Source of the DNA: Escherichia coli
Lineage (GTDB): Bacteria > Pseudomonadota > Gammaproteobacteria > Enterobacterales > Enterobacteriaceae
Direction: 5' to 3' (one strand)
DNA: 64,000 bases
NCBI RefSeq assembly: GCF_013315695.1
Contig: NZ_CP054353.1
Positions 52,601-64,000 of this stretch are shown piece after piece; positions within the stretch are counted from its first letter, which is position 1, and the number at the start of each line of letters is the position of its first letter. A model generated the notes under the pieces. It was not told the origin of the DNA, did no database searches, and saw only the letters and a list, made by a program, of their open reading frames with translations. The translations under genes and the position numbers were made by a program.

Positions 52601-53218
52601 TTATTTAGCAAAATACCGATAGTGCCCCACCATCCGCCAGCTAAACAGTACATCTTCTTCCTGCGCGCCTGCGCCAATGTTATGTATCACCAGCGGCGTA
52701 CCGTCGCGGGCGAAGCCATCTGACACCACCCCAATATGTGCCAGCCCGTTATCTAATCGCCAGGAGACAATATCGCCCGATTGATAGTCACTGGGGTTCT
52801 TGCTGGTGGGGCGTGTTTTATCGTGGCGGGTAAACCAGGTTTCCAGATTAGGCACCCGACGGTGATCGATGTTGCTGTCCGGGCGCTTTAACTGCCATTT
52901 TTGCGGGTACGCAGCAAAATTCTTCGCCATATCTTCGTGCACCAGTTTCTGCAAATCGACCTTCTGGCTGCGCAATGCACGGATCACCACATCGGAACAT
53001 ACGCCGCGTTCTTGCGGGACATCACCGCCAGGATAGGTAAGCTGCACATACGCCGGATCGTAAAATAGCGTGCTGCCGATTTGCTGTCTGGCACCGTCTG
53101 CGATGGCAAGGTTGGTGTTGGCCTGGATCTGTACCACGGTTGGTGGAACGGCGGGAGATTTTAAGGAGTGGCTGGTAAATGCCGTTAGCAGGCTGACCAG
53201 CACCAGTGAAGCTTTCAT
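52601..53218 (-). CDS. yijF: DUF1287-family periplasmic protein YijF
   Basis: 205-aa ORF with signal peptide MKASLVLVSLLTAFTSHS. Confidence 0.85.
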   Translation of the reverse strand: MKASLVLVSLLTAFTSHSLKSPAVPPTVVQIQANTNLAIADGARQQIGSTLFYDPAYVQLTYPGGDVPQERGVCSDVVIRALRSQKVDLQKLVHEDMAKNFAAYPQKWQLKRPDSNIDHRRVPNLETWFTRHDKTRPTSKNPSDYQSGDIVSWRLDNGLAHIGVVSDGFARDGTPLVIHNIGAGAQEEDVLFSWRMVGHYRYFAK

Positions 53219-53365
53219 CTGGTTCGTCCGTGAAAATAAGAGTCACAGATTCGACCTTCCGGGCTAACGATTGTTCTGTAGAGAAAATGTCCAGAAGCGG
53301 ATAAAAAATTCCTGAACAACGTGGGAGTTTCAGACGGGTGATAACGTATAAAAAGTGCTCGAACA

Positions 53366-53471
53366 GTCCCCTCTCCCCTTTGGGGAGAGGGTTAGGGTGA
53401 GGGGAACAGGCCAACTCCGGGGCGAATATTTACCCTCACCCCGACCCTCTCCCTGAAAGGGCGAGGGGGAA
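53366..53471. repeat. GC-rich nested inverted-repeat intergenic element (BoxC/RSA-like enterobacterial repeat)
   Basis: ccctctcccc-ttt-ggggagaggg then gggtgagggg ... ccctcaccccgaccctctccc; the track ORF 53022..53414 lies across it. Confidence 0.55.
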
Positions 53472-53516
53472 AAACATGCCCGCAGTGACGAGTGAGCCAC
53501 TTTGCCTGCACTCTCA

Positions 53517-53541
53517 AACTCCCGGACAAGCCGGGAGTTTG
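53517..53541 (-). terminator. Terminator-like hairpin downstream of gldA
   Basis: aaactcccgg-acaa-gccgggagttt, just 3' of the gldA stop; T-tract weak. Confidence 0.4.
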
Positions 53542-53548
53542 GAGTAGG

Positions 53549-54652
53549 TTATTCCCACTCTTGCAGGAAACGCTGACCATACTGGTCGGCTACCAGCAGT
53601 GCGGCGTAAACCTGATCTGGCGTCGCGCCGCCAGGCATGTTGTGGATGGTTTCACCTTCTGCACATGCCGCTTCTGCCACAATTCGCATTTTCGCCGGGA
53701 CATCTTCTTTAATATCCAGTTGAGCGAGAGTTATTGGCAAACCTACCGCATGGCTAAGCGCAGCTACGGTTTCGATTTCCTCCACCGGCGCGTTTTCCAG
53801 CACCAGCTGCGTCAGCGTACCGAATGCTACTTTTTCACCATGATAATAGTGATGCGCGTCCGGGATAGCGGTCAGGCCGTTATGTACCGCGTGTGCCGCC
53901 GCCAGCCCGCCGCTTTCAAAACCAACACCGCTCAAATAGGTGTTCGCTTCAATCACGCGTTCCAGCGCCGGAGTCACTACATGCTGTTCGGCGGCAAGCA
54001 TCGCTTTTTCGCCTTCTTCCAGCAGAGTGTTGTAGCACAGTTCTGCCAGTGCCAGCGCCGCCTGGGTGCACTTGCCGCCCGCCATGGTGGTCGCGCCGCT
54101 ACGAGAGCAAGCACGCGCTTCAAACCAGGTTGCCAGCGCATCGCCGATACCCGCCGCTAACAGACGTGCAGGTGCGCCAGCGACGATTTTGGTGTCGACA
54201 ATGACCATATTCGGGTTATTTGGCAACATCAGATAGCGGTCAAATTCACCCTCATCGGTGTAGATAACAGACAATGCGCTGCACGGTGCGTCGGTAGAGG
54301 CGATAGTCGGTGCGATCGCTACCGGAACACCCATGAAATGTGCCAGTGCTTTGGCAGTATCGAGAGTTTTTCCGCCACCGATACCGAGAATTGCGCCACA
54401 CTGCGCAGTTTCCGCGATGCCACGCAGACGGTCGATCTCATTTTGCGAACATTCACCGCCAAACGGCGCAATTTCTACTACCAGTCCAGCATCTTTAAAG
54501 CTTTTCTCGACAGTGGATTGAGCAAAACCTAAAACAAATTTGTCACCCACCACTAACCAGCGTTCTGCCAGCGGCTTCAGGTATTCGCCCAGACGATTAA
54601 TCACATCAGCGCCCTGGATGTATTTACCCGGTGATTGAATAATGCGGTCCAT
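53549..54652 (-). CDS. gldA: Glycerol dehydrogenase
   Basis: ORF 53549..54691 trimmed to [29 protein letters not shown] for 367 aa. Confidence 0.95.
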
Positions 54653-54662
54653 AATTGCTCCT

Positions 54663-55325
54663 TTAGAGATGAGTAGTGCCAAATGCGGCATTCCAGTCGT
54701 GTTCGAACTTCTCTATAGCTGACTCTACCGCAGGGGTGTTGAGCATTTGTTGCGCTACATCTAAGGGCAGGGTGATGGATTCACATCCTGCCAGTAAACA
54801 GTCCAGCGCCTGACGCGGCGTTTTAAAGCTGGCTGCCAGCACCATGCTTTCTGGCGCGTGCATTTCCAACAGCGCTTGCAGCTCCTGAACCGTACGAATG
54901 CCGTCACCGCCCTGGGCGTCGACGCGGTTAACATACGGAGCAACATATTTTGCCCCTGCCAGCGCGGCTAATAACCCTTGTGCGGCGCTATATACAGCGG
55001 TGCCAAGTGTAGTAATACCCTCTTTTTTCAGCATTTTAATGGCGGCAAGACCTTCGGAAGTTACCGGGATTTTCACCACAATGCCCGGAATGGCGTCGCG
55101 CAGGCGCTTCGCTTCTTCCACCATACCCTGCGCGTCACGACTCATGGTCTGAGCAAACAAAATACCCTCATCACCAATCGCTTTTTGCAGACGCGGCAGC
55201 ACTTCCCATATGGACTCCTTGCTGGCAGCGATAATGCTCGGGTTAGTTGTCACCCCGGCAATCGGGAATATGCGTGCCAGACGTTCGACTTCTGCGACGT
55301 TAGCGGTGTCCAGATACAGTTCCAT
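54663..55325 (-). CDS. fsaB: Fructose-6-phosphate aldolase 2
   Basis: 220-aa [38 protein letters not shown] (transaldolase-like). Confidence 0.94.
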
Positions 55326-55336
55326 GATGTTTCCTT

Positions 55337-57838
55337 TTACAGTTCCAGTTCATGTTGCAGCAGGCTGGCGATAGCGTCGGCAGAGGCGGCGTTAACCAGC
55401 GCGTTACGGAATTCTTCGTGCATGATGCGACGAGCGAGGCGCGAGAAAATGCGCATGTGCTGATCGCCCGCAGCATGTTTGTTCAGGGTTAACATAATGA
55501 TGAATTGCGCTTCATCATCGCCCCAGCGCACCGGCGCTGCCAGACGCGCCACGCTGATGGTGGATTGCTCAATGTGTTCTGATTTGCTGTGGGGAATGGC
55601 AAAACTAAAGCCCAGACCGGTAGAGAAAACGGCCTCGCGCGCCCACAAGTCGGCTTCCAGTTTACGCGGATAGCGACAGCGGCCCGCCAGCAGCAGGTTA
55701 TCGGTCATGCCTTTGAGCACTTCTTCTTTGCTGCGCCAGTCGCTTTCCAGTGTGATGCACTCGGCGGTGACCAGCGGTGCGTCTTGTTGGGTCATGCGGA
55801 ATTGCGCCAGCAGGTGTTCCACTTCCAGCGAAGTACGGCAGGCCATTGCCTGGTTGAGCAACTTGCGGCACTCACGGCTATCAAGTTGCGCCATCCGCGC
55901 TTTCGCCGCCGGAATTGATGGTGCGCTCATGCTGAGTTCATCCAGCCCTAAGCCGACCAGCAACGGCAGCACGGAACCTTTCGCTCCTAGTTCACCGCAC
56001 AGACCAATCCATTTGCCCTGGCGATGCACCGCCTGCACGGCGTAATCGAGCGCCCGCAGGAATGCCGGATTCAGGCTGTTATAGTGACGAGTAACCTTAG
56101 CGTTATCGCGATCCACTGCCAGCAGATATTGCGTCAGGTCATTACTACCAATACTAAAGAAATCAATCTCTTCACAGCATTGATCGATGATGAACATCAC
56201 CGACGGCACTTCCAGCATGATGCCGAGCTGGATTTTCTCATCAAACGGAATGTGTTCGTTACGCAGTTGCTGTTTTGCTTCCGCCAGTTTTTCTTTCACC
56301 CATAAGATCTCTTCCATTGAGGAGATCATCGGGATCATGATTTTCAGGCTGCCGTGAGCGGAGGCACGGAGAATCGACCGTAGTTGTGTGGTAAATAACG
56401 ACGCGTACTCTTCATAAATACGCACGGCGCGATAACCGAGGAACGGGTTTGCCTCTGCGGGAATGTTCAGATAATCAACGGGTTTGTCACCGCCAATATC
56501 CATAGTGCGCACAATAATGCTGCGTCCGTTGGCGGACTCCAGCGCCTGACAAAAAATGTTGTACAGCTCGCTTTCGCCCGGTGCACTGGTGCGATCCATA
56601 TAGAGCATTTCAGTGCGGAATAAACCAACGCCTTCCGCACCATTGCCGAATGCGGCCTGCGCTTCCACGGAGTGAGCGATGTTAGCGGCAATTTCAATGC
56701 GGATACCGTCAGCGGTACGGGCTTGTTGGGTCAGCCAGACACGCTGTTGCTCACGCAGGGCGTCCTGTACGCGGGCTTCTTGCTGATAATAACGGGCCAC
56801 GGCTTCCCCTGGCTCAACCACAATCGCCCCTGCGTTGCCGTCGATATAAATCGTTTGATGCTGCCACGGAGTAAGGGCATCAATATCCACACCTACCAGC
56901 GTCGGAATGTTGAACGAACGGGCAAGGATCACCGTATGTGAGGTGGTGCCGCCACTTTTCAGTAATAGACCTTTGAGGTGACTTTTATCCAGTTCGAGGA
57001 ACTGGCTGGGGGTCAGTTCATCAGCCATACAAATGGCGGGCTGCGTCAGTTTGCCCGGTGCCGGGAAGCGTTGCTCACCGTAGATTTGCTGGAGTAACTG
57101 GAAGCAGACGTCGCGTACGTCCAGAGCACGTTCTTGCAGGTAGCTGCTGCTGGAACGGGCGAACTCTTCGCAAAAGTGATTCGCACTGGCAACAATCGCT
57201 TCGGCGCAGCTTAATCCGGCGCTGACACCTGCCAGTAAATGTTCGCGCAGGGAAGTATCGCCAGCCAGGGATCGGTGCGCTTCCAGAATCGCGCTGGTAG
57301 CACCGTCGCTATCCAGCAGACGAAACTCTATGTTTTTCAGTACCAGCGTCAGACCGTTTTCCAGTGCGGATTGTTCGGCGTCAACGCCTTTGGCTGCGGG
57401 AAGATTACCCAGCGCATTGAGATCTAAAGAAGAGATCGGCGTCAGAATGCCGCCTGCGCTACCGCTGCACACGGTGCGGGCGCGGATAATTTGCGGATTC
57501 AGATTGGTCAGTGAAACCGGCAGTGGTTCCAGTTCGTCAGATTTAACTTCCGCCAGCGGCGCATCGCAGTGGGGGAATTCATCGCGCAGCCATTGGCTTA
57601 AACGCTGGTGCGCTTCCTGTTCGTCGGCCCCGGAAATCAGTAACTGGCAGTTATCGCCCGCCAGCGTGTCGGTGCCAATCAGCGCAAGGGCGCTTTTGGC
57701 GTTGCCCTTGCGGTCAGTGCGCAGGTTATGCCACTCAATTTGTGATGAAAAAGTATTACACAGCGTTTCAACGTGGCTTGCCGGACGCGCATGGACGCCG
57801 TTAGGTAGCTCACAAATAAATTCCACAATCAGGGCCAT
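55337..57838 (-). CDS. ptsA: Multiphosphoryl transfer protein PtsA (EI/HPr/EIIA-like fusion)
   Basis: 833-aa ORF; N-terminal HPr-like segment followed by an enzyme-I-like PEP-utilising domain. Confidence 0.9.
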
Positions 57839-58146
57839 TGCCTTTCTCCCGGTACGGTTTTCTGTTTACAGGATAAGAGCGCACGGTAACGGCCTGCCAT
57901 GTGACAAATCTGCCAAAAGCTGGACAAATGTAATGTAACCGTCAATTTGCGACGCGTCTCACAAGACGCCGTTTTGCGGCATGCTTCCGGATTATCGCAA
58001 GTTATGAGGCGGATCGCATTTTTGTACTGATATTACAAAAGTCCAGTAAATGGCCTTTTTATCCACTGTTTGCTCCGCCTGCGATTGCCTATTGTTTCTT
58101 CCATCAAAAATATGGACATGGGCTTTCGCAAGCCCGGGAGCAGCTT

Positions 58147-58992
58147 ATGAATGAGTTGGTGCAGATCCTGAAAAATACCCGTCAGCATTTAATGACGGGC
58201 GTTTCACACATGATTCCCTTCGTGGTATCGGGCGGTATTTTGCTGGCGGTTTCCGTCATGTTGTATGGCAAAGGCGCAGTGCCGGATGCCGTAGCCGATC
58301 CGAATCTGAAAAAACTGTTTGATATCGGCGTTGCAGGTTTGACGCTGATGGTGCCTTTCCTCGCCGCTTACATCGGTTATTCCATTGCAGAACGTTCTGC
58401 GCTGGCTCCATGCGCTATCGGTGCTTGGGTTGGTAACAGCTTTGGCGCGGGCTTCTTTGGTGCACTGATCGCCGGGATTATCGGCGGCATTGTGGTGCAT
58501 TACCTGAAGAAAATTCCGGTGCATAAAGTTCTGCGCTCGGTGATGCCAATCTTCATCATTCCTATCGTCGGCACACTGATTACCGCTGGCGTCATGATGT
58601 GGGGGCTGGCGACGCTGATTGGTCGTAAAAATTTCTCCGCAGAAGAGCGCGAAACCGGCAAGGCGGCACTGGTGATGGGCTGTGTTGGCGTTACTGAAGG
58701 GGCGATTCCTTTCGCCGCTGCCGATCCGCTGCGTGTTATTCCTTCCATCATGGTCGGTTCAGTTTGTGGTGCAGTAACTGCGGCGCTGGTCGGTGCGCAG
58801 TGCTATGCAGGCTGGGGTGGTCTGATTGTGCTGCCGGTGGTTGAAGGCAAGCTGGGTTATATCGCAGCAGTGGCTGTCGGAGCAGTGGTGACGGCTGTTT
58901 GTGTGAACGTGCTGAAAAGTCTGGCGCGTAAAAATGGGTCTTCGACTGATGAAAAAGAAGACGACCTGGATTTGGATTTTGAAATTAATTAA
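58147..58992 (+). CDS. frwC: PTS fructose-like EIIC component FrwC, internally deleted allele
   Basis: 281-aa ORF; aligns to the FrvB IIC domain in this window but lacks the central segment that includes the AFDMGGP motif; K-12 FrwC remembered as 359 aa. Confidence 0.75.
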   Translation: MNELVQILKNTRQHLMTGVSHMIPFVVSGGILLAVSVMLYGKGAVPDAVADPNLKKLFDIGVAGLTLMVPFLAAYIGYSIAERSALAPCAIGAWVGNSFGAGFFGALIAGIIGGIVVHYLKKIPVHKVLRSVMPIFIIPIVGTLITAGVMMWGLATLIGRKNFSAEERETGKAALVMGCVGVTEGAIPFAAADPLRVIPSIMVGSVCGAVTAALVGAQCYAGWGGLIVLPVVEGKLGYIAAVAVGAVVTAVCVNVLKSLARKNGSSTDEKEDDLDLDFEIN

Positions 58993-59006
58993 TTGAGGAA
59001 CGAGCC

Positions 59007-59327
59007 ATGACGAAAATTATTGCAGTAACCGCGTGTCCATCTGGTGTTGCCCATACCTATATGGCGGCAGAGGCGCTGGAAAGTGCCGCGAAAGCGAAAG
59101 GCTGGGAAGTGAAAGTAGAAACCCAGGGCTCGATTGGTCTGGAAAATGAACTGACTGCGGAAGACGTGGCGAGCGCCGATATGGTGATTCTGACCAAAGA
59201 TATCGGCATCAAGTTTGAAGAGCGTTTTGCTGGCAAGACCATCGTGCGCGTCAACATCAGCGACGCGGTAAAACGCGCTGATGCCATTATGAGCAAAATT
59301 GAAGCTCACCTGGCACAAACCGCTTAA
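59007..59327 (+). CDS. frwB: PTS fructose-like EIIB component FrwB
   Basis: 106-aa ORF MTKIIAVTACPSGVAHTYMAAEALESAAKAKGWEVKVETQGSIG. Confidence 0.93.
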   Translation: MTKIIAVTACPSGVAHTYMAAEALESAAKAKGWEVKVETQGSIGLENELTAEDVASADMVILTKDIGIKFEERFAGKTIVRVNISDAVKRADAIMSKIEAHLAQTA

Positions 59328-59377
59328 GTTCTTATCCCGCCCGTAAGGGCGGGTTCGCTTTCCCACAGGAGTTCCTC

Positions 59378-61675
59378 ATGACGAATCGTATCTCTCGCCT
59401 CAAAACTGCACTGTTTGCCAATACCCGTGAAATCTCGCTGGAGCGGGCGCTGCTTTATACCGCCAGCCATCGGCAAACCGAAGGCGAACCGGTGATATTG
59501 CGCCGGGCGAAAGCAACAGCGTATATCCTTGAACATGTTGAAATTTCGATTCGTGATGAAGAACTGATTGCCGGTAACCGTACGGTGAAACCGCGCGCCG
59601 GAATTATGTCGCCGGAAATGGACCCTTACTGGCTGCTGAAAGAGCTGGATCAATTCCCGACGCGTCCGCAGGACCGCTTTGCTATCAGCGAAGAAGATAA
59701 ACGTATCTACCGCGAAGAGTTGTTCCCGTACTGGGAAAAACGTTCGATGAAAGATTTCATTAACGGGCAGATGACGGATGAAGTAAAAGCCGCGACCAGC
59801 ACGCAGATTTTCAGCATCAACCAGACGGATAAAGGCCAGGGGCACATTATTATTGATTACCCGCGCCTGCTGAATCACGGGCTGGGTGAGCTGGTAGCGC
59901 AAATGCAGCAACATTGTCAGCAACAGCCGGAGAATCACTTTTATCAGGCCGCGTTGTTACTGCTGGAAGCCTCGCAGAAACACATTTTGCGTTACGCCGA
60001 ACTGGCGGAAACGATGGCGGCAAACTGCACAGATGCCCAGCGTCGCAAAGAGCTGCTGACTATTGCGGAGATCTCCCGCCATAACGCGCAACATAAGCCG
60101 CAGACGTTCTGGCAGGCGTGCCAGTTATTCTGGTACATGAACATCATTCTGCAATACGAATCCAACGCCAGTTCGCTGTCTTTAGGGCGCTTCGACCAGT
60201 ATATGTTGCCGTTCTATCAGGTATCATTAACCCAGGGCGAAGATCCGGCGTTCCTGAAAGAACTGCTCGAATCTTTATGGGTGAAATGCAACGACATCGT
60301 GCTGTTGCGCTCCACCAGTAGCGCGCGTTATTTCGCCGGTTTCCCGACCGGCTATACCGCACTGCTCGGCGGGTTAACTGAGAACGGACGTAGCGCGGTG
60401 AACGTACTTTCGTTCCTCTGTCTCGACGCCTATCAAAGTGTGCAATTACCGCAACCGAACCTGGGGGTGCGCACTAACGCCTTGATCGACACGCCGTTCC
60501 TGATGAAAACCGCCGAAACCATTCGCCTTGGCACCGGTATTCCGCAAATCTTCAACGATGAAGTGGTGGTGCCAGCGTTCCTCAACCGTGGCGTTTCGCT
60601 GGAAGATGCACGCGACTATTCCGTAGTGGGCTGTGTGGAATTATCTATTCCCGGCAGAACCTACGGCTTGCATGACATCGCGATGTTTAATCTGCTGAAA
60701 GTGATGGAAATCTGCCTGCATGAAAATGAAGGCAATGCTGCGCTGACTTATGAAGGTTTACTGGAGCAGATCCGCGCCAAGATCAGCCACTACATCACCC
60801 TGATGGTTGAGGGCAGCAATATTTGCGATATCGGTCACCGTGACTGGGCACCTGTACCGCTGCTCTCATCGTTTATCAGCGATTGTCTGGAAAAAGGCCG
60901 CGATATTACCGATGGCGGTGCGCGTTATAACTTCTCCGGCGTACAGGGGATCGGTATCGCCAACCTGAGCGATTCTCTCCATGCGTTGAAAGGTATGGTT
61001 TTTGAGCAACAGCGTTTAAGTTTTGACGAATTGCTGTCGGTATTAAAAGCCAACTTCGCAACGCCAGAAGGCGAAAAAGTCCGTGCTCGCTTAATTAACC
61101 GCTTCGAGAAATACGGTAACGATATCGACGAGGTGGATAACATCAGCGCCGAACTGTTACGCCACTACTGCAAAGAAGTGGAAAAATACCAGAACCCGCG
61201 CGGCGGCTACTTCACGCCGGGATCGTATACCGTTTCTGCTCACGTCCCGTTGGGATCGGTGGTTGGCGCGACGCCAGACGGTCGTTTTGCCGGGGAACAA
61301 CTGGCAGACGGTGGCTTGTCTCCCATGCTGGGCCAGGACGCACAAGGACCAACGGCGGTACTGAAATCAGTCAGCAAGCTCGATAACACGCTGCTTTCTA
61401 ACGGTACGTTGCTGAACGTGAAATTCACTCCGGCGACCCTGGAAGGTGAAGCGGGATTACGCAAACTGGCTGACTTCTTACGGGCATTTACCCAGCTTAA
61501 GTTACAACACATTCAGTTTAACGTGGTGAACGCCGACACGTTGCGGGAAGCGCAACAGCGCCCACAAGATTATGCCGGGCTGGTGGTGCGCGTTGCCGGA
61601 TACAGCGCCTTCTTTGTCGAACTGTCGAAGGAGATCCAGGATGACATCATCCGCCGGACAGCGCATCAGCTGTAA
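59378..61675 (+). CDS. pflD: Pyruvate-formate-lyase-like glycyl radical enzyme PflD
   Basis: 765-aa ORF; glycyl-radical motif near the C-terminus (VVRVAGYSAFFVEL). Confidence 0.94.
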   Translation: MTNRISRLKTALFANTREISLERALLYTASHRQTEGEPVILRRAKATAYILEHVEISIRDEELIAGNRTVKPRAGIMSPEMDPYWLLKELDQFPTRPQDRFAISEEDKRIYREELFPYWEKRSMKDFINGQMTDEVKAATSTQIFSINQTDKGQGHIIIDYPRLLNHGLGELVAQMQQHCQQQPENHFYQAALLLLEASQKHILRYAELAETMAANCTDAQRRKELLTIAEISRHNAQHKPQTFWQACQLFWYMNIILQYESNASSLSLGRFDQYMLPFYQVSLTQGEDPAFLKELLESLWVKCNDIVLLRSTSSARYFAGFPTGYTALLGGLTENGRSAVNVLSFLCLDAYQSVQLPQPNLGVRTNALIDTPFLMKTAETIRLGTGIPQIFNDEVVVPAFLNRGVSLEDARDYSVVGCVELSIPGRTYGLHDIAMFNLLKVMEICLHENEGNAALTYEGLLEQIRAKISHYITLMVEGSNICDIGHRDWAPVPLLSSFISDCLEKGRDITDGGARYNFSGVQGIGIANLSDSLHALKGMVFEQQRLSFDELLSVLKANFATPEGEKVRARLINRFEKYGNDIDEVDNISAELLRHYCKEVEKYQNPRGGYFTPGSYTVSAHVPLGSVVGATPDGRFAGEQLADGGLSPMLGQDAQGPTAVLKSVSKLDNTLLSNGTLLNVKFTPATLEGEAGLRKLADFLRAFTQLKLQHIQFNVVNADTLREAQQRPQDYAGLVVRVAGYSAFFVELSKEIQDDIIRRTAHQL

Positions 61676-62519
61676 CGTTGTGGAAACGCGCCGCGATGAT
61701 GTGGCGCGCATTTTCAACATTCAGCGTTATTCACTGAATGACGGCGAGGGCATTCGTACGGTGGTCTTTTTTAAAGGCTGTCCGCATCTTTGCCCGTGGT
61801 GTGCTAATCCGGAGTCGATCTCCGGCAAAATCCAGACGGTACGCAGAGAGGCGAAATGTCTGCACTGTGCGAAATGTTTGCGTGATGCGGATGAATGCCC
61901 GTCCGGGGCGTTTGAACGGATTGGTCGCGATATCAGCCTTGACGCGCTGGAACGGGAAGTGATGAAAGATGACATTTTCTTTCGCACGTCCGGCGGCGGC
62001 GTCACGCTTTCTGGCGGCGAAGTGTTAATGCAGGCGGAGTTTGCTACCCGTTTTTTACAGCGGCTTCGGTTGTGGGGTGTGTCATGCGCCATCGAAACTG
62101 CCGGAGACGCGCCGACCAGCAAGTTGTTACCGCTGGCGAAATTGTGCGATGAAGTGTTGTTCGATTTAAAAATTATGGACGCGACTCAGGCGCGGGATGT
62201 GGTGAAGATGAACCTGCCACGCGTGCTGGAGAATCTGCGTTTGCTGATTAGTGAGGGCGTCAACGTGATCCCGCGTTTACCGCTGATCCCTGGTTTCACG
62301 CTCAGCCGGGAGAATATGCAGCAGGCGCTGGACGTGCTGATCCCGCTGAATATCAGGCAGATCCATCTGTTACCGTTTCATCAGTACGGCGAACCGAAAT
62401 ACCGCCTGCTGGGGAAAACATGGTCGATGAAAGAGGTGTCTGCGCCGTCGTCAGCCGATGTGACAACGATGCGCGAAATGGCAGAACGGGCCGGATTTCA
62501 GGTTACCGTGGGAGGTTAA
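61641..62519 (+). CDS. pflC: Glycyl-radical-enzyme activating enzyme PflC (radical SAM)
   Basis: ORF 61572..62519; start at MTSSAGQRISCNVVETRRDD for 292 aa; CPHLCPWCANPE radical-SAM motif; overlaps pflD 3' end. Confidence 0.92.
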   Translation: MTSSAGQRISCNVVETRRDDVARIFNIQRYSLNDGEGIRTVVFFKGCPHLCPWCANPESISGKIQTVRREAKCLHCAKCLRDADECPSGAFERIGRDISLDALEREVMKDDIFFRTSGGGVTLSGGEVLMQAEFATRFLQRLRLWGVSCAIETAGDAPTSKLLPLAKLCDEVLFDLKIMDATQARDVVKMNLPRVLENLRLLISEGVNVIPRLPLIPGFTLSRENMQQALDVLIPLNIRQIHLLPFHQYGEPKYRLLGKTWSMKEVSAPSSADVTTMREMAERAGFQVTVGG

Positions 62520-62520
62520 A

Positions 62521-62862
62521 ATGGCATACCTGGTGGCAGTAACCGCCTGCGTAAGCGGCGTGGCGCATACTTATATGGCGGCGGAACGGCTGGAAAAGTT
62601 GTGCCTGTTAGAGAAGTGGGGCGTCAGCATTGAAACTCAGGGCGCGCTGGGAACGGAGAATCGTTTAGCGGACGAGGATATCCGTCGGGCGGATGTTGCG
62701 CTGTTAATTACGGATATCGAGCTTGCCGGTGCTGAGCGATTTGAACATTGCCGCTATGTGCAATGCAGCATCTACGCTTTCCTGCGTGAGCCGCAGCGGG
62801 TGATGAGCGCGGTGCGCAAAGTGCTTTCTGCGCCGCAGCAAACCCATCTTATTCTGGAGTAG
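62521..62862 (+). CDS. frwD: PTS fructose-like EIIB component FrwD
   Basis: 113-aa ORF MAYLVAVTACVSGVAHTYMAAERLEKL. Confidence 0.92.
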   Translation: MAYLVAVTACVSGVAHTYMAAERLEKLCLLEKWGVSIETQGALGTENRLADEDIRRADVALLITDIELAGAERFEHCRYVQCSIYAFLREPQRVMSAVRKVLSAPQQTHLILE

Positions 62863-63700
62863 TCGGTTTTTCTGTCAGTTGGCTGTGGTACTGCCGACGA
62901 TATTCCGACGGCGAGCGTTCGGTATTTTTACGAAACAGACGGCAGAAGTAGTTGCTGTCGACAAAGCCGCAGGCGTGCGCCACTTCTTTTACCTTCAGGT
63001 CATAGCCTTTCAATAACGTCTTAGCGTGCTCCAGTCGCGTGTGATTCAGGTATTCGTTAAAACCAATGGCCCCCGTTTTTTGAAACAGGTGCGAGAGGTA
63101 ATTTGGCGAAATATAGAATGCCTGTGCGACAGATTCGCGGGTAAGCGCGGAGGCATAGCGTTCGTCGATATAATCGCGAATAGCTTCGAATAGAGCCTGG
63201 CTACGTGAGGCGGTCTGGATTTGGCTGCCGAGCAAATCGCGGCAGTGGCTAAGCAGGCTGGCGACGATAAGCCTTGCCGTTTGCTGCTCCTGCGGCTGCA
63301 TTTGCATTTCATTGAGCGTTTGTAGCAGAAAAGAACCAATGCGCGGGCCGCGTCGGGCGACGTGTTGCTTCGCCAGATTTTGATATTGTTTGCCATCCCA
63401 TTGCACGACGCTGAAGCCGAGTTGCTGTTTGCCAAACAGCACGCTAAAGGTAGTGGCGGGGGCTTGCCATTGTGGAAAATTCCAGCCACCAGCGGCAACG
63501 TACAGCACATCGCCGGGAACTAACGTTGCTCCAGCGCCGGTATCAACAAACTCACCTTCCAGCACAATTTCCAGACGTGGAAAATCGACCTGATACGCAA
63601 GATCGGGCACCGGGCCGTTACTGCTGGCAAAGTAAATCTGGCGCAGGGACAGCGGGCCGTTGATCAGGCGGGAGAGCAGATAGCTGACGTCGTGATACAT
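62849..63700 (-). CDS. yijO: AraC-family transcriptional regulator YijO
   Basis: 283-aa ORF; C-terminal AraC HTH; overlaps frwD 3' end (convergent). Confidence 0.88.
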   Translation of the reverse strand: MYHDVSYLLSRLINGPLSLRQIYFASSNGPVPDLAYQVDFPRLEIVLEGEFVDTGAGATLVPGDVLYVAAGGWNFPQWQAPATTFSVLFGKQQLGFSVVQWDGKQYQNLAKQHVARRGPRIGSFLLQTLNEMQMQPQEQQTARLIVASLLSHCRDLLGSQIQTASRSQALFEAIRDYIDERYASALTRESVAQAFYISPNYLSHLFQKTGAIGFNEYLNHTRLEHAKTLLKGYDLKVKEVAHACGFVDSNYFCRLFRKNTERSPSEYRRQYHSQLTEKPTTPE

Positions 63701-63747
63701 GTTATTCCCTTAGGTATGTAGACGGGAAAACAGTAACTGGCATTATT

Positions 63748-63775
63748 AAAAAAGGCCACCTGAAAAGTGTGGCCT
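63748..63775 (-). terminator. Rho-independent terminator downstream of eptC
   Basis: ggccac-ctgaaaagt-gtggcc inverted repeat followed on the minus strand by T6. Confidence 0.6.
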
Positions 63776-63848
63776 GAGGGGAGTTCGATGTAAACATTGC
63801 GGCAGTATCGCATCCGGCAAATAGCGCCAGACGCGATACAAAGGTCAT

Positions 63849-64000
63849 TTACTGATTACCTACCTGGTCGCCATATGGCAGCGTGTCGTAATCGATCAGC
63901 GCGTTTTTCTTGTACGGGTTACCAATCCAGCGGGTAGTTTCTTTGAACTGCGGATTCACCACTGAACGGGTTGGATCGTAACCGTCGTAAGATAAGCCCG
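63849..64000 (-). CDS. eptC: Phosphoethanolamine transferase EptC (YijP), C-terminal 49 codons only (gene starts beyond the window end)
   Basis: Minus-strand frame reads ...GYDPTRSVVNPQFKETTRWIGNPYKKNALIDYDTLPYGDQVGNQ then stop at 63849..63851; K-12 synteny after yijO. Confidence 0.65.
   Translation of the reverse strand, partial: GLSYDGYDPTRSVVNPQFKETTRWIGNPYKKNALIDYDTLPYGDQVGNQ

Follow-up and report, generated by a model that had tools for sequence, protein, structure and literature searches.

The frwCB-pflDC-frwD cluster of Escherichia coli as a probable anaerobic module for an anhydro-sugar, and a lineage-specific in-frame deletion in its frwC gene

What is the function of an operon in which two genes for phosphotransferase system (PTS) EIIB proteins flank a glycyl radical enzyme (GRE) and its radical-SAM activase, and does this operon still serve its purpose in a strain with a damaged EIIC gene? 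These questions are raised by the genes frwB, pflD, pflC and frwD, located at positions 59,007 to 62,862 of a 64,000 nt stretch of the Escherichia coli contig NZ_CP054353.1 (assembly GCF_013315695.1; the whole stretch is called the window below). A sequence-only reading of the window had described PflD as similar to pyruvate formate-lyase (PFL), its substrate as not established and the upstream gene frwC as decayed. The genes belong to the well-known E. coli operon frwCB-pflDC-frwD, which is accompanied by the divergent operon ptsA-fsaB-gldA and by yijO; the first description of this gene cluster dates from 1995 (Reizer et al., Microbiology 141:961, cited in PMC5600444), and its function was still called unresolved in 2016 (PMC5600444). 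We consider it very likely that these genes act together as a module for the anaerobic catabolism of an anhydro-sugar, in which the FrwC step has probably been lost in the window strain. The only feature specific to the window is a lineage-specific in-frame deletion within frwC. The earlier interpretation was therefore supported in part and outdated on its central point, the substrate.

The gene pflD (59378..61675, plus strand) encodes a protein of 765 amino acids with the Pfam domains PFL-like (PF02901, 702 bits) and Gly_radical (PF01228, 108 bits), placing it within the GRE superfamily. A motif search located the glycyl radical motif RVAGYS with the radical residue Gly741 (codon 61598-61600), as well as Cys419 (60632-60634) and Glu421. 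In an alignment with PflB, PflD has Gly418-Cys419-Val-Glu421 in place of the Cys-Cys pair that defines PFL (Cys418/Cys419 of PflB, mature numbering). A single cysteine followed by a glutamate two residues on is typical of radical eliminases such as glycerol dehydratase and the choline lyase CutC. PflD reached 1347 bits with TIGR01774, the model of the PFL2/glycerol dehydratase family of GRE eliminases (cut-off 678), but only 121 bits with the PFL equivalog model TIGR01255 (cut-off 994). When the Protein Data Bank (PDB) was searched with PflD, glycerol dehydratase (1r8w) matched with an E-value of 3.6e-194 and PflB with 5.8e-33. Pull-down experiments, moreover, showed no binding of PflD to the formate channel FocA (PMC5600444).

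If PflD were a true PFL, PflC would be its activase and the cluster would couple the uptake of a fructose-like sugar to the production of formate. This idea draws on the PFL-type fold, on the presence of the Gly_radical domain and on the name "formate C-acetyltransferase", which is attached to PflD in RefSeq and in NCBIfam NF007437 and carried by nearly all homologues. However, the replaced Cys-Cys pair, the score far below the TIGR01255 cut-off, the closer relationship to glycerol dehydratase, the missing FocA binding and the publication of a different reaction for PflD (as summarised in the review PMC12441222) all speak against it. Because of these observations, PflD is by sequence and by the available literature not a pyruvate formate-lyase, and we regard the formate-producing alternative as effectively refuted. 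The designation "pyruvate-formate-lyase-like" given in the sequence-only reading holds at the level of the fold, the only level at which PflD is akin to PFL, and fails at the Cys-Cys pair. Automated annotation continues to name the protein "formate C-acetyltransferase" in thousands of genomes despite the missing PFL-defining residue pair.

Compared with the PflB/PflA pair, PflD/PflC share the fold, the glycyl radical C-terminal domain and a radical-SAM activase, whereas PflD lacks both the Cys-Cys pair and the FocA interaction and PflC contains a cysteine-rich insert that is absent from PflA. PflD falls into the same subfamily as glycerol dehydratase and the GRE eliminases CutC, HypD and propanediol dehydratase, with the single cysteine and the glutamate two residues on, but it does not reach the threshold of any specific equivalog model, be it that of CutC, HypD or sulfopropanediol dehydratase. 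Moreover, those enzymes remove water or an amine, while the reaction ascribed to PflD opens the ring of a phosphorylated cyclic ether.

The substrate, which had been considered not established, has meanwhile been reported. According to Ma et al. (2024, JACS, doi 10.1021/jacs.4c07718), as summarised in the review PMC12441222, PflD cleaves 1,5-anhydromannitol-6-phosphate (1,5-AM6P) to 1-deoxyfructose-6-phosphate. The same review states that the reaction is glycyl radical dependent, that a PTS first phosphorylates 1,5-anhydroglucitol and 1,5-anhydromannitol to their 6-phosphates when they are degraded anaerobically, and that YbiW cleaves 1,5-anhydroglucitol-6-phosphate (1,5-AG6P), likewise to 1-deoxyfructose-6-phosphate (PMC12441222). 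The long-unsolved function of a cluster known since 1995 was resolved in 2024 as the radical opening of 1,5-anhydrohexitol-6-phosphates, a pathway that lets gut bacteria use 1,5-anhydroglucitol and 1,5-anhydromannitol, polyols of dietary and host origin. A crystal structure of the K-12 protein is available as PDB entry 8yjo ("Probable dehydratase PflD"); it aligns over residues 1-765 and is identical to the window PflD at 760 of the 765 positions. Together with the equivalent genomic position, this identity establishes the window PflD as the orthologue of K-12 PflD.

From these data a pathway of four steps can be proposed. The Frw PTS would take up 1,5-anhydro-D-mannitol and phosphorylate it at C6, with the phosphoryl group passing from phosphoenolpyruvate to PtsA (HPr-EI-EIIA), then to FrwB/FrwD (EIIB, Cys10) and finally to FrwC (EIIC); the involvement of a PTS is published, and its assignment to Frw builds on gene linkage. 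PflC would then place the glycyl radical on Gly741 of PflD, as expected from its family. In the third step PflD opens the ring of 1,5-AM6P at its C-O bond according to the published reaction, for which Cys419 would supply the thiyl radical and Glu421 the base; these residue roles are suggested by the GCVE motif common to glycerol dehydratase and choline lyase. Finally, FsaB would split 1-deoxyfructose-6-phosphate, releasing glyceraldehyde-3-phosphate together with hydroxyacetone, which GldA would then reduce to 1,2-propanediol. We propose FsaB as the candidate enzyme for this cleavage on the basis of the conserved location of fsaB and gldA next to the cluster, the position of fsaA beside ybiY-ybiW and the annotation of GldA as L-1,2-propanediol dehydrogenase. 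The FsaB and GldA steps are reportedly also mentioned in the abstract of the 2024 PflD paper.

The closest parallel is the locus of YbiW (PflF), YbiY (PflE) and FsaA (PDB 8id7, 8yjn). As at the pflD locus, a GRE with the motifs G-C-x-E and RVAGYS is encoded together with its own activase and an adjoining fsa aldolase gene. The two enzymes have the same reported product, and their substrates are C2 epimers. In contrast to the pflD locus, the activase gene lies 5' of the enzyme gene at the ybiW locus, there is no overlap and no PTS genes are interleaved. The YbiW structure matched PflD with 481 bits, much weaker than PflD's own structure 8yjo.

The damage to frwC (58147..58992, plus strand), which encodes the PTS EIIC component with 281 instead of 359 amino acids, was assessed by comparison with K-12 and with the otherwise identical isolate AF3 (NZ_OZ547117.1), which possesses an intact frwC. 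It consists of one in-frame deletion of 234 bp (78 codons, residues 155-232) between two 8-bp repeats GGGGCTGG, of which a single copy remains in frwC at 58602-58609; apart from this deletion there is no difference to AF3. The view of frwC as decayed was thus correct in that the gene is damaged, while diffuse decay did not take place. The deleted residues, which are embedded in the membrane, are 85% invariant across four genera, a conservation equal to that of the rest of FrwC; among them are no fewer than two strongly hydrophobic stretches and the block LAFDMGGPVNKVAYAFMLICV. Since Pfam recognised no family in FrwC, the intact form included, at E-values up to 1, the deletion was judged with NCBIfam. 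The match to NF007787 (FrwC) is split in two with the break at model position 155, whereas the intact allele matches positions 1-359 of 359. With 78 residues missing, the window FrwC does not cover the EIIC models TIGR01427 and NF007787 over their full length.

Since the junction occurs in a single one of 5,426 complete E. coli genomes and since short direct repeats border the deletion, it might be thought to result from an assembly artefact. However, public assemblies from NCBI, JGI, ENA and Logan contain an identical FrwC of 281 amino acids on 280 contigs and in 607 index blocks, and over 11,854 nt the independent run ERR11027628 does not differ from the window, its neighbouring genes all being of full length. 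These independent assemblies refute the artefact, to which we assign next to no probability. Based on the single junction-bearing genome, the identical protein on the 280 contigs and ERR11027628, we regard the deletion as real, recent and specific to one lineage and not as a sign of progressive decay.

The loss of the 78 residues most likely inactivates the FrwC permease. Without residues 155-232 of FrwC, uptake, the first step of the proposed pathway, has probably been lost in this lineage, with all other genes intact. As the deletion is in frame, the expression of the downstream genes should be unaffected. This absence of a polar effect, together with the intact genes frwB-pflD-pflC-frwD, would fit a pathway that still works in the window strain, either because the shortened FrwC is functional or because another PTS, e.g. 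the mannose PTS, supplies the phosphorylated substrate, in which case the deletion would be neutral. The persistence of the allele on 280 contigs is compatible with such a scenario, as is the fact that the shortened FrwC passes the whole-protein cut-off of NF007787 (539 bits versus 426). Yet the missing segment is as invariant as described above and includes LAFDMGGPVNK and hydrophobic segments, all other FrwC orthologues examined have exactly 359 amino acids, and 5,425 of the 5,426 complete genomes lack the junction. We therefore consider a functional pathway in this strain unlikely, although it retains a minor share of the probability. It is also conceivable that the deletion was selected and did not arise by neutral decay, for example because it blocks the uptake of an anhydro-sugar with a toxic phosphate or removes an EIIC exploited by a phage or bacteriocin. 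This thought is prompted by a clonal lineage that carries the deletion unchanged in hundreds of assemblies with intact downstream genes, and we give it very little weight. If FrwC is indeed inactive, as we favour, the lineage is a natural mutant for asking whether FrwC is the anhydromannitol permease.

A further alternative concerns the substrate of the module, which could physiologically be another compound than 1,5-anhydromannitol, such as fructose, in keeping with the name "fructose-like PTS", 1,5-anhydroglucitol or a deoxy- or anhydro-hexitol of related structure, with the reported activity of PflD as a side activity. By TIGR01427 and TIGR00829 the PTS components are of the fructose family, PtsA had previously been connected with the anaerobic catabolism of fructose (PMC6643234) and 1,5-anhydromannitol has been termed non-physiological in mammals. 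On the other hand, the assignments in the review are specific, with YbiW acting on 1,5-AG6P and PflD on 1,5-AM6P (PMC12441222), and a PflD structure has been deposited. According to the review, there are also kinetic and growth data that favour 1,5-anhydromannitol/1,5-AM6P as best substrate and as inducer of the operon. In addition, the aldolase and propanediol dehydrogenase genes of the divergent operon fit a 1-deoxy-ketose product and would be superfluous for fructose. A different physiological substrate appears improbable to us in view of these points.

Several observations weigh against the anhydro-sugar module with an inactive FrwC and against the gene model on which it is drawn. The reaction of PflD is taken from a review summary (PMC12441222) and from the name of a PDB entry. 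The FsaB and GldA steps and uptake by FrwCBD rather than by another PTS are proposals, and the module has two separate EIIB proteins, FrwB and FrwD. The loss of FrwC function is deduced from sequence, and a PDB sequence search with FrwC found no solved homologue onto which the deletion could be mapped. The N-terminus of PflC is poorly conserved and lacking in YbiY, and its start codon is backed by the comparison between genera. Finally, a scan found no sigma-70 consensus site in the 308-nt spacer between ptsA and frwC.

The start codon of pflC determines whether it overlaps with pflD. With its ATG at 61641 and the pflD stop codon TAA at 61673-61675, pflC (61641..62519, plus strand; 292 amino acids) begins inside pflD and the two genes share the 35 nt from 61641 to 61675, as the sequence-only reading had noted. 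The Shine-Dalgarno sequence AAGGAG (61628..61633) lies within pflD, 7 nt 5' of the pflC ATG, and E. coli, Edwardsiella, Enterobacter and Salmonella all share the arrangement AAGGAG-N7-ATG without variation. The start and the Shine-Dalgarno sequence of pflC are thus both located inside the upstream gene and conserved across taxa, as expected for translationally coupled overlapping genes. A longer pflC frame from 61572, which had been considered as an option, was rejected: the ATG is specific to E. coli, the three other genera having Ser or Leu codons there, and it is not preceded by a Shine-Dalgarno sequence. Two GTG codons of the E. coli gene (codons 14 and 21) that would abolish the overlap were also dismissed since they are not common to the other genera, with Edwardsiella lacking a start codon there. 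In fact, the Edwardsiella pflC offers no alternative in-frame start ahead of the conserved core IFNIQRYS. Because of the invariant start and Shine-Dalgarno sequence, the unconserved ATG at 61572 and the Edwardsiella gene, the overlap with a start at 61641 appears as the best-supported gene model.

The N-terminal extension of PflC comprises 22 residues (61641-61706) that have no counterpart in the paralogue YbiY. Its first 11 codons constitute the overlap with pflD, while codons 12-22 are poorly conserved, yet the frame remains open and the only change in length is a 3-nt indel. Further downstream, PflC has the motif CPHLCPWC at residues 47-54 (CX3CX2C; Cys47/51/54) and the auxiliary cysteines CLHCAKC...C (Cys 73/76/79/86). 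It is assigned to the Pfam families Radical_SAM and Fer4_12 and belongs to the GRE-activating radical-SAM enzymes of TIGR02494, with 261 bits against a cut-off of 174. The pflC stop codon TAA (62517-62519) and the ATG of frwD (62521) are separated by a single base (62520), in agreement with the earlier observation that frwD starts 2 nt after the pflC stop. The tight pflD/pflC and pflC/frwD junctions suggest translational coupling of pflD, pflC and frwD.

The two EIIB proteins were confirmed as such. FrwB (59007..59327, plus strand) has 106 amino acids, is recognised as a fructose-type EIIB by Pfam PTS_IIB and reached 210 bits with NF007783 (cut-off 135). FrwD (62521..62862, plus strand), the second fructose-type EIIB with 113 amino acids, also matched PTS_IIB and reached 224 bits with NF007747 (cut-off 153). 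Both belong to TIGR00829 (PTS EIIB, fructose type; cut-off 76.85) with 137.7 bits for FrwB and 85.7 bits for FrwD, and both keep Cys10, within TACPSGVAHT in FrwB and TACVSGVAHT in FrwD. The coordinates given before for frwB, pflD, pflC and frwD match RefSeq, and the identification of two EIIB genes flanking a GRE and its radical-SAM activase agrees with Pfam and NCBIfam, in which every product of the cluster scores above the curated cut-offs. The RefSeq annotation of NZ_LR898874.1, the chromosome of E. coli MSB1_4I from a human rectal swab in Australia, matches the open reading frames of the window, and this chromosome is 100% identical to window positions 55000-64000.

The cluster is widely conserved. 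Of the 5,426 complete E. coli genomes, 5,425 contain the 9-kb block, and in 5,390 no less than 80% of the query was matched at a single location. The comparison with intact orthologous clusters, proposed in the sequence-only reading as a check, revealed the nine genes in identical order in Edwardsiella tarda, Enterobacter roggenkampii and Salmonella enterica, although gldA does not adjoin fsaB in the Edwardsiella locus. The 35-nt pflD/pflC overlap, a 14-nt overlap of frwD and yijO and a FrwC of 359 amino acids are common to all three. For every gene of the cluster the dN/dS ratio between E. coli and Salmonella was between 0.02 and 0.11, which points to purifying selection on all of them. The K-12 locus (frwCB-pflDC-frwD, ptsA-fsaB-gldA and yijO; b3945-b3954) resembles that of the window in genes, order and overlaps; FrwB and FrwD are identical, PflD and PflC differ at 5 amino acids each and only FrwC differs in length (359 amino acids in K-12) by the in-frame loss of residues 155-232. 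Among the PflD homologues, one from an ENA metagenome (P0001) has 908 amino acids and is 97% identical to PflD, with only 69% of the query aligned; it could stem from a gene fusion or a faulty assembly.

The functional inference was said to fail if the cluster was untranscribed. This is not so in K-12, where pflD and frwC are among differentially expressed transcripts (PMC6643234). The candidate regulatory region is the divergent ptsA-frwC spacer (57839..58146, 308 nt), which we analysed by a pattern scan and a MAFFT alignment of five loci. Conserved blocks in the four genera are located at 57896-57934, 58029-58062 and 58083-58097. A CRP-like site TGCGA-N6-TCACA at 57948-57963 occurs in the same one-mismatch form in all four genera. 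The FNR consensus, searched with up to 2 mismatches, was absent from the spacer. The sigma-70 scan yielded 2 sites in the whole 6.2 kb versus 5.2 expected by chance. The missing sigma-70 consensus in the spacer suggests that any promoters in it are activator-dependent.

Terminator-like sites were not enriched either (10 versus 7.9 expected). One of them is located in the 50-nt spacer between frwB and pflD, where a hairpin (59336..59353, plus strand) consists of CCCGCCC-GTAA-GGGCGGG followed by TTCGCTTTCC, with a fold of -18.5 kcal/mol and a z-score of -2.9. Enterobacter has a hairpin of the same type in this spacer, and Salmonella and Edwardsiella have longer hairpins of unrelated sequence. 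The hairpin may act as a partial terminator or as an mRNA-stabilising element.

The divergent genes on the minus strand are treated as one operon, ptsA-fsaB-gldA (PMC6643234). The gene ptsA (frwA; 55337..57838) encodes a fused HPr-Enzyme I-EIIA(Fru) protein with the Pfam domains PTS-HPr (residues 7-84), PEP-utilisers (123-653) and PTS_EIIA_2 (690-829). It is followed by fsaB (55325 down to 54663; 54663..55325) for fructose-6-phosphate aldolase 2, supported by Pfam TAL_FSA and by TIGR00875 with 351 bits against a cut-off of 246. The final gene, gldA (53549..54652), encodes a glycerol/L-1,2-propanediol dehydrogenase of 367 amino acids according to Pfam Fe-ADH and RefSeq, with 1 amino acid difference to K-12 and the same length as the K-12 form. 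Upstream of the annotated start at 54652, its frame is open for another 13 codons and reaches an ATG at 54691, where it overlaps with the end of fsaB. At the other end of the cluster, yijO (62849..63700, minus strand) encodes an AraC-family regulator (Pfam HTH_18 and HTH_AraC; RefSeq) and is convergent with frwD, their 3' ends overlapping by 14 nt (62849-62862).

A permissive Rfam scan of positions 53000-64000 returned nothing in the cluster. Downstream of gldA, a long hairpin at 53374-53462 gave sub-threshold matches to three microRNA models of Rfam, the best with an E-value of 0.037 and a score far too low for the gathering thresholds; the hairpin probably represents a REP-type or terminator palindrome.

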